Positions 1 to 3,815 of a stretch of 4,631 nucleotides of DNA are shown in pieces. Where the stretch lies: the IMG/VR virus record IMGVR_UViG_2667527953_000022, one strand, 5' to 3'. A program made the translations under genes and the position numbers. The number at the start of each line of letters is the position of its first letter. Within the stretch, counting starts at the first letter, position 1. Origin of the DNA: a virus. Lineage: Monodnaviria; Loebvirae; Hofneiviricota; Faserviricetes; Tubulavirales. The notes beneath the pieces were generated by a model. It saw only the letters and a program-made list of their open reading frames with translations. It was not told the DNA's origin and searched no databases.

Positions 1-482
1 TGCCCGTTACCCGTATCAACCCAGACAACATCACCAAGAGAATATGAAAAGTCCTTAATTACCGGACGGGAAAGACAATTTTCTTCGGTAACCGGCTTAT
101 TATATTCAGGTGTCAAATCCCCCTCACCACCCTGAAAAGCAAGGGTGCAGGCTGTCCACTTTTGCTTGTCTGAATCCCAGACTTTATATGCTGACCACCG
201 GGCACGGACAAAAGACCCGACAGTCGAAGGTGCATTAACAGGCGTGGAAAGTGGCACACCACAATAATGAATTATTCCGGAACATGCGTCATAATTGCCC
301 GAACCACAGAAAAGATGACCGGCCGCCCTGGCTAATTTAATCGACGTCCCCGCGTCCGAATAATCTGTCCTGCAGGATGAATGGCCTGCACACTGAACAA
401 GTGCATCCGGATTTTCTTTCTCTTCAGCGAAAGAAAACGAGGAAAAGAACAAAAACAGAAGCGGAATAATAAAGTGAATCAA
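1..482 (-). CDS. Putative secreted Cys-rich minor coat / adsorption protein (g3p-like by position); N-terminal 160 codons only, 3' end beyond the left window edge
   Basis: Minus-strand frame is open for 160 codons from TTG at 482..480 to the window edge, checked triplet by triplet. AGGAG at 495..491 lies 8 nt upstream of the TTG. No in-frame ATG exists; the alternative GTG at 491..489 overlaps the SD. N-terminus LIHFIIPLLFLFFSSFSFA/EEK looks like a signal peptide, and the following ~140 aa contain 8 Cys. It sits directly after the coat gene and its terminator, where g3p lies in Ff-type phages. Absent from the ORF track because it runs off the edge. Confidence 0.5.
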   Translation of the reverse strand, partial: MIHFIIPLLFLFFSSFSFAEEKENPDALVQCAGHSSCRTDYSDAGTSIKLARAAGHLFCGSGNYDACSGIIHYCGVPLSTPVNAPSTVGSFVRARWSAYKVWDSDKQKWTACTLAFQGGEGDLTPEYNKPVTEENCLSRPVIKDFSYSLGDVVWVDTGNG

Positions 483-503
483 ACAAAACACTCCTGGTAT
501 GAT

Positions 504-527
504 TAAAAAAGCGCCCCGGAGGGCGCT
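504..527 (-). terminator. Rho-independent terminator downstream of the major coat gene
   Basis: Plus strand 510..527 is AGCGCCC-cgga-GGGCGCT, a 7-bp GC-rich stem with a 4-nt loop. On the minus strand the stem is followed by TTTTT (505..509). It lies 17 nt after the coat gene stop (543..545). On the plus strand no T-tract follows, so it is unidirectional. Confidence 0.7.
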
Positions 528-542
528 GTCATTAAATAACTA

Positions 543-785
543 TCAGGTTGCGCGGGAAAGGAAGCCTTTAATGATACCGATACCCAGACGGGCAGCGAGT
601 GAAACACCAAGAACGGCAAATGCCGCCGTACCTGCAATGCCAATCACACTGGTGAGCGCGTCACCAATTTCTTTAACAGTATCAGCAGTAATAAAAGACG
701 GAACACTAACCGCAGCAGAAGCCGGAAGCGCAGCGACAGAAGCAGTCGTTGCCAGACCAGATAAAACAAGGGTTTTCAGTTTCAT
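543..785 (-). CDS. Inovirus-type major coat protein precursor (g8p-like), 80 aa
   Basis: ATG at 785..783 preceded by AAGAGGAA (GAGG 6 nt upstream). Signal peptide [24 protein letters not shown] with an A-S-A cleavage motif. Predicted mature peptide of 56 aa has an acidic N-terminus (D, E, D), a long hydrophobic core ([29 protein letters not shown]) and a basic C-terminus (KGFLSRAT), the tripartite layout of M13 g8p (compare its ...GIKLFKKFTSKAS tail). The track ORF 543..803 begins at TTG 18 nt upstream; the ATG with SD is preferred. Confidence 0.75.
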
Positions 786-809
786 ACAATTCCTCTTTGA
801 CAATTAAAA

Positions 810-980
810 TTAATTAACAGCATCACTGAACATCCGGCAGACCAGAGTGAAAATAACACCAAGACCAAAGCCAAGAAGCCAGCAGACAATCCAGACATAA
901 AGAACGGACCAGTAAAGCTCCCCGTCCTGTACGCCAGAATTCAGTGCGGATAAAACACCGCTGAAATCAAATTCAGTCAT
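810..980 (-). CDS. Small hydrophobic protein, 56 aa (possible g9p-like minor coat protein)
   Basis: ATG at 980..978 overlaps the stop of the preceding ORF in the 8-mer ATGACTGA (980..973), suggesting translational coupling. One strongly hydrophobic segment (LYWSVLYVWIVCWLLGFGLGVIFTLV). No clear SD. Lies between the 141-aa gene and the coat gene, as g7/g9 do in Ff phages. The track lists it as 810..1013 from a GTG. Confidence 0.45.
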   Translation of the reverse strand: MTEFDFSGVLSALNSGVQDGELYWSVLYVWIVCWLLGFGLGVIFTLVCRMFSDAVN

Positions 981-1113
981 AATAACGCTGAACAGTAATG
1001 CTTTGTGAGTCACAGGCGCGAATCAGTTTTATTCCGATGCCAAAACCTGAAGAAAATAAAATCATTGCAGGCGCAGCAAATAAAACAAAGTTCAGAAAAT
1101 CAGCGTCAGACAT
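973..1113 (-). CDS. Small hydrophobic protein, 46 aa (possible g7p-like minor coat protein)
   Basis: ATG at 1113..1111 lies 4 nt after the TGA stop of the 141-aa gene (minus strand reads TGATGATATG). Weak AAAGG about 8 nt upstream. Hydrophobic core FLNFVLFAAPAMILFSSGFGIGI. The track alternative (973..1167, ATG at 1167, N-terminal MTVSRWVHCPQVKKKADD) would overlap the last 16 codons of the 141-aa gene and has no SD; the start is uncertain. Confidence 0.4.
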   Translation of the reverse strand: MSDADFLNFVLFAAPAMILFSSGFGIGIKLIRACDSQSITVQRYYD

Positions 1114-1117
1114 ATCA

Positions 1118-1543
1118 TCAGCCTTTTTCTTTACCTGCGGGCAGTGCACCCAGCGGCTGACCGTCAAAACGTTTCATGGAGCTGGAAATAAAACGATACC
1201 AGACACCATGACGTTCTGAGCCTGTCGCCCATGAGTTAACATCCACCGTGAGATAAACAGGTTTGCCCTGCAAATCAGGACATGAATTAAAAAATTTAAA
1301 ATCCTCCTCAGTACAGGAAAAGCGCTCATGCTCCTCACGGCGGACTTTTAATTTTCGGTCCTCATACGGATAGGCAATAACAATGGCATATTTGGGTTTA
1401 GCCTCAGGGTTATAATGAGAACCCGTGGGTTTTAACTCCTCATCATTTATGACAGTGACGTGAATAAAATATCCCGCCATTGTCATGCCTGAGGTAAAAC
1501 CCTCAGGGGAAGGAAACGGAAAACTGTCGTAAATTTGATTCAT
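1118..1543 (-). CDS. Hypothetical 141-aa protein; candidate ssDNA-binding protein by position (g5p / RstB slot)
   Basis: ATG at 1543..1541 with GAGGAG (1552..1557 on plus) 8 nt upstream, 28 nt after the Rep stop. No recognisable motif by eye. Function is inferred only from its position directly downstream of the replication initiator, and its size is similar to the ~144-aa Pf1 gene 5 protein (from memory). Confidence 0.6.
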   Translation of the reverse strand: MNQIYDSFPFPSPEGFTSGMTMAGYFIHVTVINDEELKPTGSHYNPEAKPKYAIVIAYPYEDRKLKVRREEHERFSCTEEDFKFFNSCPDLQGKPVYLTVDVNSWATGSERHGVWYRFISSSMKRFDGQPLGALPAGKEKG

Positions 1544-1573
1544 AAATCAGACTCCTCAATGTTAAAAATTCAG

Positions 1574-3574
1574 TCAGGGACAGTTATTGTCACAAGTCCA
1601 AGGGTCGGCTTCGCCGCCCCCACCCGCCGCGCGGGAGCGCGTCGTGCGGTGCCGTGAAGCCGACGAAATAAACACAGATTCATAGCTGCTGCCGCTTCTG
1701 GCTTCCTCTGCGCGGATTTTTTCTGAGGGGGTCATACGGCGGACAACACAACCCATAAAACGGGTTATGACCGGAACAGGGCCAAACATGAAACCGGAAA
1801 TCACCGGTGCGCAGGGTTCACCGTAACGGTTAATACGGGGCTTACCACCTTCCTGCGGCTGAACGTAAAACGGACGAAGCAGACGTTCAGAACAGAAGAA
1901 ACCGCCGTTCAGCAGGATATAGGTCCGGAAATCGCCTGCATCACAGGCCATGCGGATGGCTTCCAGTTCGGCGACCTGCTGCGGCGTGAACTGCTGCATA
2001 TTGATATGATGCGCCTCAAGCGGTGCGCGGAAGCTGCGCATCTGGCGGTAAGCCGTGACGGACGGAACGCCAAAGAACTGGAACAGGCGAAGGCGCGTTG
2101 CTTTCTGCCAGCAGGCGGCACGGCTGACGGCATCACAGAATGAACGGGCAGAATAACGGTCATTCAGGGCGGTAATACCATCCGCACTGACATCACCCGC
2201 CATTTTGGTGATGTACTTCACGATGTAACGGAAACCATCACCCTTTTCAGGGTCAATAGCCTCAATACAAATACGGTGCTCTTTCGCCCCCTTTTCATCC
2301 GGCTCATCGCGCATGGCCTCTTCACGGAAAATGGCCAGCACCGTTGCGCTCTCATGGGGATTGCAGTAAATCAGGAAATTCCAGTGCGTTGTACCGTCAG
2401 CATGAGGCTCGACCGTACGCAGGCCGGGTATCTGAATACCGGCTTTATCCAGTCTGCGGCAGACCCGACGCCAGACGGTATTCAGCCAGGCGTGCGAATC
2501 CTTAACGGTCGGGCAACCTGCTTCCCACCATTTTTTATTCGGACGAGAATGCCATTTTCCGGCAACATTAAAACTGGTCGTCGGGTGAAAACGTGACGGC
2601 GTGGTGAGCACGATGAAGTAACCGGACAGCCCCATATCTTCGGACAGTTCACAGACGGCCTTTCCACGAACGCAGAGTTCAGCAATCCGGTTTTTCGGAT
2701 TCGAGACTGAGGCGTTATGCGCATCTTCCAGCGTACAGACCAGCTCATTAAAGGCATCAAAGACGCCGGAGGACCGGAGATACTTTTTCACGCGTTTACT
2801 GCGGACAGCAAACAGGTCACGATGCCAGTCAGAAATATAAGGCGCGTTGCGGTTCAGTATGCCGAGCATGCGATAGACCTCATTAACCCGCTGGTCACGG
2901 ACAACCCGCAGGAAACGGGTGACAAAAGCCAAATCAGTCAGACGCTTAAGCAATCCCTCATCGCCGTAACGCTCATGATAAGTGGCATAAACGGGTGCGA
3001 AATCAAAGCCGGAGATGGCCCGAAAATAGGCCATCACATTGAGAAGGTGATGCTCTGGTACATCACTATAAATGGCCCGGGAAACAAGGCAGTCACGAAC
3101 AACCGAATCAGCCACCTCAGCAAGCTGTTCATCAGTGCAGAAAAGCGAGAATTCATAAGGGTCTCCGTCCTGATTGAAGAAAGCAAAACGGTGCGCGGAC
3201 TCAAGCGCCATCAGCGCATTTTTCACACCGAGCTGATAAACAAGACGGCAGAAAGCGTGTGCCACGGTGAACGAAAACGAGCCAAACTGTGAAACCAGTC
3301 CGGCAGCCTTACCCCTGTCAGCGAGAGATAAATCCGTGCAGTTAATTCCGTAAATCACACGGTCAACCTGCGTGTTACGCGGCAATGCGAGCTGTGCAGA
3401 TAAGGTCCCGACCTCATCACGATACTGGCGGGAAAGCGTGGAAAGGTTGCGGGTGGCAACATCGCGCTCAGTCCGAAAATGCTCGCGTTCGGACAGCGTC
3501 AGGCAGGGACGACTAAGGGCAACGGATGCCGCGTCGATGGCGTTATACGCTGTGAGGATGGTTGATTCAGTCAT
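1574..3574 (-). CDS. Rolling-circle replication initiator (HUH-type endonuclease), phage P2 gpA / phiX174 A family, 666 aa
   Basis: Long ORF with three family motifs. Motif 1 [13 protein letters not shown] (about 2579..2617) resembles P2 gpA FITLTAPSKYHPT. The motif-2 region [16 protein letters not shown] has H-W-N at 2378..2386. Motif 3 RYIVKYITK has two Tyr spaced YxxxY (codons 2225..2227 and 2213..2215). The start is taken as ATG 3574..3572, preceded by GGGAGAGGAG and overlapping the upstream ORF stop as ATGACTGA; the track ORF extends to a TTG at 3676 with an implausible W-rich extension. Confidence 0.85.
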
Positions 3575-3815
3575 ACTCCTCTCCCGAAACCATATCGGAA
3601 GCCTCAACCATATCCAGATAGACAACCCACGATCCGGAAGGAACTGAAAGAGAAACAAGAACGAACTCTGGCCCAATAAAACGAAGGCAGTAATTGATCA
3701 GCTCATCAAAGGAGTCACATTTTAACCAAAGACCATCAACACGGGCTGTACAGTAAACAGGAGCAGTCAAGTAAAAACCAAACCCAGGAAAGTAATCGTA
3801 GTAAACAATTTGCAT
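3567..3815 (-). CDS. Hypothetical 82-aa protein, first gene of the rep operon, apparently translationally coupled to rep
   Basis: ATG at 3815..3813 preceded by GAGG 2 nt upstream. Its stop overlaps the Rep ATG in ATGACTGA (3574..3567). No recognisable domain. The alternative is that this is untranslated leader. Confidence 0.45.

Follow-up and report, generated by a model that had tools for sequence, protein, structure and literature searches.

Gene organization of the locus

The stretch of DNA analyzed here (4,631 bp, referred to as the window) is the entire contig CDQU01001495.1, in reversed orientation, from the draft assembly GCA_000936775.1. Both ends of the window are therefore assembly breaks rather than biological ends. 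On its minus strand the window carries an operon with the organization of a filamentous phage (inovirus), followed on the right by a divergent regulator gene, a putative folded attachment site (attP) and a short segment of the target replicon (Table 1). The six-frame list of open reading frames (ORFs), the RefSeq annotation of near-identical loci and a script agree on this operon. Its successive genes are separated by -8, 30, 4, -8, 24 and 60 nt, spacings that are operon-like.

Table 1. Features of the window, from left to right
Feature	Position	Strand	Basis or remark
g3-like gene, 5' part (160 codons)	1..482	-	TTG start at 482; runs off the left contig end
Intrinsic terminator	503..527	-	Between the coat gene and g3
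Major coat protein candidate, 80-aa precursor	543..785	-	Layout and position
56-aa hydrophobic protein, g9 position	810..980	-	By position; 8-nt overlap with the upstream gene
46-aa hydrophobic protein, g7 position	973..1113	-	By position
141-aa protein with a predicted oligonucleotide/oligosaccharide-binding (OB) fold, candidate g5-like single-stranded DNA (ssDNA)-binding protein	1118..1543	-	Position and model
Rep, 666 aa, predicted rolling-circle replication initiator	1574..3574	-	PF05840, P2 gpA / fs2 Rep family
orf82, small acidic protein	3567..3815	-	Stop overlaps the Rep start by 8 nt
Divergent intergenic control region, operon versus regulator gene	3816..3948		Consensus match only
66-aa basic protein, candidate repressor/immunity protein	3949..4149	+	phrog_2503; role from position
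51-aa hydrophobic ORF between the regulator and attP	4213..4368	+	Conserved in relatives
Internal dif-like site, first arm of the folded attP	4374..4400	+	Conserved in all relatives
G+C-rich hairpin, tip of the attP stem-loop	4403..4433		Sequence and fold
Second, inverted dif-like site, prophage end	4440..4467	-	Junction alignments and fold
Target-replicon flank: 19-nt spacer, then end of a prepilin gene	4468..4631	-	Translation and plasmid matches

All the ORFs listed in an earlier reading of this DNA, made from its letters only (the sequence-only reading), exist in the order given there, with the terminator followed by the g3-like gene. That reading also took the operon to be complete within positions 1-3815. 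However, g3 is cut by the contig end, and g6, g1 and g4 lie off the contig and are found only in relatives.

The proteins of the window recur exactly or at >90% identity in many E. coli (Escherichia coli) assemblies, where nearly all of them are labelled 'hypothetical protein'. A megablast search with the window finds 95-98% identity in E. coli chromosomes. The recurrence of every protein, this DNA identity and the Pfam match of Rep (see below) indicate that the gene set is not due to chance. An NCBIfam search with 10 proteins and an Rfam search of the window gave no match. Of 5,426 complete genomes, 110 contain some part of the window, 8 contain at least 80% of it, and only 23 contain the morphogenesis DNA (positions 1-1120). 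This patchy distribution argues for a mobile element.

The operon can be followed beyond the window in complete relatives, where the near-identical copies (95-99%) are 8.3-kb units, frequently arranged in tandem. In strain TD225-C4, tandem 8,328-bp units are located beside hipA, at the chromosomal dif site, and the operon goes on to encode the remainder of g3 (439 aa), a 118-aa protein, a protein with a zonular occludens toxin (Zot) domain, and a 407-aa secretin. Strain 600029 (locus L002) has a single copy between yneL and hipA. The 118-aa protein of the relatives is g6-like (phrog_1944, E = 4e-10). The contig ends before the pI gene, and the evidence for this gene comes from L002, which matches the window DNA at 98%. 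Its pI/Zot-domain protein (L002 6524-7735) matches the Pfam Zot family (E = 3.9e-9; 36.7 bits, cut-off 20.3), and in the relatives this protein matches phrog_1675 ('protein I of M13', E = 8e-50). The pIV secretin of the relatives matches phrog_1012 ('protein IV of M13', E = 4e-115). The homologues of g6, g1 (Zot-like) and the secretin gene that the sequence-only reading proposed to look for on the left are thus present in complete relatives, beyond the window. With these genes, and with a gene order equal to that of the Vibrio phage VFJ, its assignment of the locus to an inovirus is borne out. No recombinase gene is annotated within the 8.3-kb unit of the relatives.

Copies of the element are found in other contexts as well. 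A 363-kb plasmid of Citrobacter youngae carries tandem copies of the same phage, and 16 uncultivated viral contigs in IMG/VR encode the Rep of the window at 77-99% identity. In a phage-phage (circular) junction, position 4456 would be joined to GACGTTGTGG.

Based on these observations, the window very probably represents the right-hand ~55% of an integrated E. coli inovirus, including its right attachment junction with a plasmid XerCD site. The sequence-only reading had raised the alternative of a fixed chromosomal island with no phage-like flanks, which is at odds with the dif/Xer junctions, the tandem copies and the several insertion sites. It is also rather unlikely that the copy in the window is a defective prophage remnant, a fixed island with only the replication/coat half left beside the pilin gene. 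The contig does stop inside g3, pI and pIV of the same genome would, if present, lie beyond it, and some relatives have split zot or secretin genes (L001 9570-10741; L009 3989-5248). On the other hand, all eight ORFs of the window are intact and have the full length of their clusters, and in draft assemblies the contigs of such phages frequently end at points of divergence between tandem or variant copies. Moreover, an IMG/VR contig that is 99.6% identical (L020) runs across a phage-phage (circular or tandem) junction into the secretin gene.

Replication and morphogenesis proteins

The ATG of the 666-aa Rep is preceded by a Shine-Dalgarno sequence (GGAGAGGAG), and the same start is used by RefSeq in the relatives; the longest mechanical ORF (700 aa) starts further upstream. 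Rep matches Pfam PF05840 (Phage_GPA; E = 2.1e-48, 165.5 bits, gathering cut-off 31.4) and phrog_91 ('nicking at origin of replication', E = 1.4e-127). Two motifs are invariant in an alignment of 18 homologues, down to 40% identity. The first is Y450-x-x-K453-Y454, the two tyrosines of which we take to be catalytic, as in phiX174 and P2 gpA. The second is H391-x-D393 ... H397-W398-N399, a candidate HUH metal-binding motif with Asn rather than His at the third position. Membership in PF05840 and the invariant two-tyrosine motif mark Rep as a rolling-circle initiator of the P2-gpA/phiX type, and not as a homologue of gII of the Ff phages (M13, f1, fd). The parallel with the Ff order gII-gV-gVII-gIX-gVIII-terminator-gIII, drawn in the sequence-only reading, therefore stands for the order of functions, but for Rep it is functional and not familial. 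The Reps of the Vibrio phages VFJ, fs2 and Vaf1 show 29-30% identity to this protein (tblastn against phage genomes), and a CTXphi-related RstA-like protein is 31% identical to the Rep core. At its C-terminus (window 1574-1600), Rep ends in PWTCDNNxP, a motif still present in the consensus when homologues as distant as 40% identity are included.

The 8-nt overlap between the orf82 stop and the Rep ATG points to translational coupling. The position of orf82 is that of orf113 in VFJ, and its product has a weak match to phrog_3104 (E = 6e-4).

The 141-aa protein, encoded directly after Rep, belongs to a tiny family: a set of 1.84 billion proteins contains 9 representatives of it. The protein matches phrog_30648, a family of unknown function, and a weak match to PF17426 ('Putative_G5P', E = 0.058) recurs in 5 of 14 family members. 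Its profile gave chance matches only against PDB sequences and no profile similarity to the V proteins of the Vibrio phages (hhalign probability 0.3%), and tblastn against phage genomes found no match. AlphaFold modelling with only the 14 close homologues reached a predicted local distance difference test (pLDDT) score of 36, and a usable model needed the distant representatives. With these added (pLDDT 76, predicted template modelling score (pTM) 0.68), the model has the β1-3/helix/β4-5 topology of an OB fold and resembles single-stranded DNA-binding proteins (SSBs). From this predicted fold and the position of the gene, we read the protein as a candidate g5-like ssDNA-binding protein.

The 80-aa protein has a signal-like N-terminus ending in ASA, and a mature part of 56 aa is predicted by script. 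There are three acidic residues in the first 20 of the mature part, followed by a hydrophobic core of 23 residues and Lys/Arg residues at the C-terminus. This computed layout confirms the acidic / hydrophobic / basic arrangement of g8p that the sequence-only reading had described. The conserved tail, KGFxSRA, is like the C-termini of other inovirus coat proteins, and the gene occupies the position of orf73 in VFJ. The family is found only in Escherichia and has no Pfam domain. It shows a weak match to phrog_1646 ('major coat protein', E = 0.017), a non-significant hhalign score against other inovirus coat proteins (probability 30%) and nothing meaningful in the PDB. The layout, the position, the weak phrog_1646 match and the tail motif make this protein the major coat protein candidate.

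The 46-aa and 56-aa proteins are candidates for the g7 and g9 products by their size, hydrophobicity and order only. Their exact sequences are found on 961 and 629 contigs, respectively.

The terminator after the coat gene, described as strong in the sequence-only reading, is real. Read on the minus strand from 527 to 503, it consists of AGCGCCC-TCCG-GGGCGCT and a T-run, with a 7-bp stem (6 G-C pairs) and a 4-nt loop, and it is the top-listed terminator-like site in a scan of the window.

In the g3-like fragment, the N-terminus is hydrophobic and signal-like (MIHFIIPLLFLFFSSFSFA), and there are 7 Cys residues in 160 aa, in agreement with the secreted Cys-rich protein proposed before. The full-length homologue in L002 (8097-9482, 461 aa) has a long Gly/Ser-rich linker and a hydrophobic C-terminal anchor, matching the architecture of Ff g3p. 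No family match was found for the g3-like protein in Pfam or PHROG. None of the neighbours of the coat gene was placed in an unrelated family.

Regulator region, folded attP and junction with a plasmid Xer site

As in CTXphi and YpfPhi, the right end of the phage appears to be organized for Xer-mediated integration of a folded ssDNA attP (PMC4266046, PMC4246890). The internal dif-like site has the sequence AGTGCGCACAA-TGACG-TTATGTATAAA, and its inverted partner is ACATAA-CGCGTGTCACA-TTGTGCGTACT. Between them lies the G+C-rich hairpin, GGCCGCTGCG / 11-nt loop / CGCAGCGGCC, which could also act as a bidirectional terminator. A search of the window for exact dif, allowing up to 3 mismatches, found none; the dif-like sites are more diverged than this, and they were found by eye and by alignment. 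As a single strand, positions 4366-4472 fold into one long hairpin with a bulged centre (-35.7 kcal/mol, z = -10). The structure is kept in 7 variants, with 10 of 39 pairs changed on both sides (compensatory changes). At the far end of the strain 600029 prophage the sequence is ATTTAACATAATATACATTATGCGCACT, so that an almost intact dif is rebuilt, and the hipA-side end reads ...GTGTCACA|TTATGCGCACC.

The attP hairpin segment (window 4365-4467; L007 10992-11097; L032 4922-5028) is common to many otherwise unrelated E. coli dif elements, at 84-95% identity. These include the prophage of strain NC101, with an Ff-type Rep, and the segment is also found on E. coli and Klebsiella plasmids. One IMG/VR contig has a second, diverged copy of attP, the stem of which shows compensatory changes.

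At the right-hand junction (4456/4457), phage DNA extends up to 4456 (...GTGTCACA) and is followed by TTGTGCGTACT-ATTATTGTTATTCACTG.... The XerC-type arm TTGTGCGTACT (4457-4467) and all the DNA to the right of it belong to the target replicon. This flank contains, at 4487-4630 on the minus strand, the last 47 codons and the stop of a type IV (IVb-like) prepilin gene. From 4457 onward it is 96% identical to the E. coli plasmids CP091397.1 and NZ_CP053385.1 and ~85% identical to 13 further plasmids, with no chromosomal match in the 5,426 complete genomes. In the empty plasmid (L005, region 3098-3747), the full prepilin gene carries the Pfam N_methyl motif and adjoins type IVb pilus assembly genes and regulators of the ANR/AraC type. 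The Xer-type site of this plasmid, ATTTAACATAA-TCTATC-TTGTGCGCACT (also written AGTGCGCACAA-GATAGA-TTATGTTAAAT), is located 19 nt downstream of the pilin stop. Comparison of the window junction with this empty site places the crossover precisely at the boundary between XerC arm and central region of a site of the plasmid dimer-resolution type. About 12 nt outside the XerD arm (ATCACTCAGATG) are the same in the chromosomal dif (L002 4428-4447) and the plasmid site (L005 3078-3097), and the plasmid site may therefore have originated in a dif region or an earlier Xer-dependent element.

It is highly improbable that the phage was joined to the pilin gene by a chimeric assembly and that in this strain it is really located at the chromosomal dif. 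The flank is short (4457-4631), and the draft is fragmented into >1,400 contigs. However, the point of change coincides exactly with the XerC-arm boundary of a bona fide Xer site found in empty plasmids. The junction also carries the plasmid's own variant of the arm, TTGTGCG[C/T]ACT, instead of the dif arm, which a random chimera would not. In addition, a different plasmid, in Citrobacter, also carries this phage in integrated form. Junctions have thus been observed with the chromosomal dif, the p786605_3-type plasmid site and the Citrobacter plasmid.

To the left of attP, the control region contains one promoter-like site, on the plus strand (3884-3913), identified by consensus match only. 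The 66-aa protein encoded next to it matches phrog_2503 (E = 7e-27) and has no match in the PDB or Pfam; it is a candidate repressor/immunity protein from its position. Relatives carry a 62-aa regulator at the same place (L002 12722-12910, and L010, the prophage of E. coli UTME-13), the L010 version being 47% identical. The copy in strain 600029 is without orf82 and has a 670-aa Rep and a different 62-aa regulator, the remainder being 98-99% identical. This swap resembles the rstR alleles of CTXphi, and the regulator region looks like an exchangeable immunity module. The 51-aa ORF has a 31% identical counterpart in UTME-13 and is unannotated in the RefSeq copies. In the UTME-13 prophage (L010 1904-2269 and 10820-11185), a gene for a 'TolA C-terminal domain-containing protein' adjoins the regulator. 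This protein might interfere with the TolA-dependent entry of other filamentous phages.

Exchange of modules extends beyond the regulator. The UTME-13 prophage has a Rep (90% aa identity to that of the window) and a 141-aa protein (86%) that are joined to an Ff/IKe-type g3 (Phage_Coat_A). In another type of relative, the backbone (window 1-3571; 91-96% nt identity in L036) has the gene of an IS110-family transposase directly upstream of Rep. This gene (L036 10579-11544, L008 10456-11421, L009 11453-12418) replaces orf82, the regulator and attP and forms an alternative integration module. In at least 11 complete E. coli genomes, this form of the phage lies between ybiB and hcxB. L008 and L009 have the same IS110 gene and site but share only the Rep/141-aa module, with other morphogenesis genes. 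An Rfam search around the IS110 gene of L036 found no RNA. Homology to the IS110-type variants ends at the Rep start codon (~3571), which indicates that everything to the right of this point is an exchangeable module.

Relationship to other filamentous phages and implications

By tblastn, the closest cultured phages are the Vibrio phages VFJ, fs2 and Vaf1. The annotated order of VFJ is identical: orf113 overlapping Rep, a 698-aa Rep, V, VII, IX, VIII, III, VI, I and IV. In fs2 and VFJ, moreover, the regulators are on the opposite strand and the genome is ~8.5 kb, as in the present phage. There are also clear differences. Besides Rep, only pI is detectable by BLAST, and the pI of the relatives is 32% identical to those of VFJ, fs2 and Vaf1 (30% to that of f1). 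The VFJ coat protein belongs to PF19199, while the present one has no family, the V protein has 141 aa compared to 104 aa in the Vibrio phages, and the host is Escherichia instead of Vibrio. With a Rep at 29%, a pI at 32%, the other proteins undetectable and no nucleotide match, the phage does not come close enough to be placed in the genus Saetivirus (fs2, VFJ).

The likeness to CTXphi lies in the integration system: there is no integrase, two inverted dif-like sites form a hairpin attP in ssDNA, integration at dif is XerC-sided, and tandem arrays and exchangeable repressor modules are found (PMC4246890, PMC3089051). In comparison with CTXphi, the present phage has its own secretin and no toxin genes in the window, and it sits in a plasmid Xer site. 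With the Ff phages it shares the order of functions, the terminator after the major coat gene, the g3 with a Gly/Ser linker, and pI at 30% identity. The Ff phages differ in that they do not integrate, their gII/gX Rep is of another family, and their g5p is small (87 aa). Taken together, the phage appears to be an uncharacterised E. coli inovirus, with an organization closest to that of fs2/VFJ and integration like that of CTXphi.

The sequence-only reading suggested CUS-1 / Ypf-phi as references. YpfPhi (Y. pestis) and CUS-1 (E. coli O18:K1:H7) are enterobacterial tandem dif prophages of ~8.7 kb that encode Zot and a short secretin (PMC4266046, PMC10354491); zot is the tenth gene of YpfPhi and a 414-aa secretin the eleventh (PMC10354491). 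As with CTXphi, integration of YpfPhi is Xer-dependent (PMC4266046, PMC4246890). In UPphi, a group of IKe-like dif prophages, gene II contains a nested gene X, and both gene II and gene V are >85% identical to their YpfPhi counterparts (PMC7307601), which implies that both phages have Reps of the Ff-type II/X. The comparison with YpfPhi was made through published descriptions and through the dif prophage of NC101, which fits the published YpfPhi layout and has a PF05144/PF05155 Rep and a PF17426 G5P. This prophage shares only the secretin (43% aa identity) and attP (84%) with the present phage.

A place for the phage within the CUS-1/YpfPhi lineage, or with UPphi, is hardly credible on this evidence. 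The shared host range, dif integration, tandem copies, Zot-like gene and short secretin (PMC4266046, PMC10354491) would favour it, as would the 84% identity to the NC101 attP. However, the Rep of the window matches PF05840 only, as opposed to the Ff-type gene II/X (PMC7307601) and PF17426 gene V that these phages would have, and the coat, g3 and g6 genes are different. The replication modules thus appear to be of different families. Furthermore, the 23 complete E. coli genomes that contain the morphogenesis DNA include none named as O18:K1. UPphi resembles the present phage in its Enterobacterales hosts, dif integration and mosaic exchange of modules, and differs from it in its II/X-type gene II (PMC7307601) and in that the morphogenesis genes of the window are not IKe-like. 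With moderate confidence, the present phage can be assigned to a lineage separate from YpfPhi/CUS-1 and UPphi, so that the suggested references are not close relatives. The NC101 prophage and phage 2 of UTME-13 were also considered as UPphi-like representatives; the NC101 Rep does not match the UTME-13 Rep, and such labels are tentative. A scan of genome contigs with the single Rep sequence gave no match, and one with the Rep alignment found only relatives in Salmonella diarizonae and Xenorhabdus, none in Yersinia. A literature search for filamentous prophages of enterotoxigenic E. coli (ETEC) returned nothing specific.

The assignment to an integrated inovirus suggests the following life cycle. 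Rep would nick the double-stranded replicative form and drive rolling-circle synthesis of the strand that corresponds in sense to the minus-strand genes, and the 141-aa OB-fold protein would coat this ssDNA. The 46-aa, 56-aa, coat, g3 and g6 proteins would be inserted in the inner membrane. By way of the pI complex and a pIV secretin of its own, the phage would extrude the ssDNA without lysis. Owing to the terminator behind the coat gene, g8 transcripts would remain abundant relative to those of g3, as in Ff. The divergent 66-aa protein would repress the operon and set immunity. Integration would need no phage integrase, with the ssDNA attP hairpin mimicking a dif duplex. Host XerC would then exchange one strand pair with dif or with a plasmid Xer site, and replication would fix the insertion, as has been demonstrated for CTXphi.

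Several points weigh against the interpretation of the window as part of an integrated inovirus. The lineage is known from sequence alone, and its virions, ssDNA and replicative form are predictions. Neither the replication origin nor the nick site was located. Because the contig stops within g3, the window's own copy is not demonstrably complete, and the plasmid flank measures only 175 bp and comes from a draft assembly of short reads. For the coat, g7-like, g9-like, g3-like and regulator assignments, no significant homology support came from Pfam, PHROG, NCBIfam, the PDB or hhalign comparisons. Finally, megablast of the window against the 50,697 phage records of INPHARED found no match, and no cultured phage in this collection is close to it.

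A broader proposal can be formulated, which we consider unlikely. The phage would represent a so far undescribed lineage of E. coli inoviruses, at the level of a genus, in which a Xer-hijacking attP and an IS110-family recombinase are interchangeable integration modules. The Xer form could lodge in the dimer-resolution site of virulence-type plasmids, beside the type IVb pilin gene. The pilus could serve as the receptor, as TCP does for CTXphi, and if so, the phage and the pilus plasmid would spread together.

The main value of the present analysis lies in annotation, as it supplies functional labels and attachment sites. About 2% of complete E. coli genomes carry parts of the element, and all of its genes except those for Rep, Zot and the secretin are labelled 'hypothetical protein'. 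The current understanding of inoviruses is not overturned. This is a known kind of phage, already present in IMG/VR as uncultivated viral genomes. Less usual is that it has inserted into the Xer site of a plasmid, alongside a type IVb pilin gene. This suggests that filamentous phages of the Xer-dependent type can occupy plasmid Xer sites, here in a type of plasmid with type IVb pili and virulence regulators of the ANR/AraC type. Occupancy of such a site would let the phage travel with a mobilisable plasmid.

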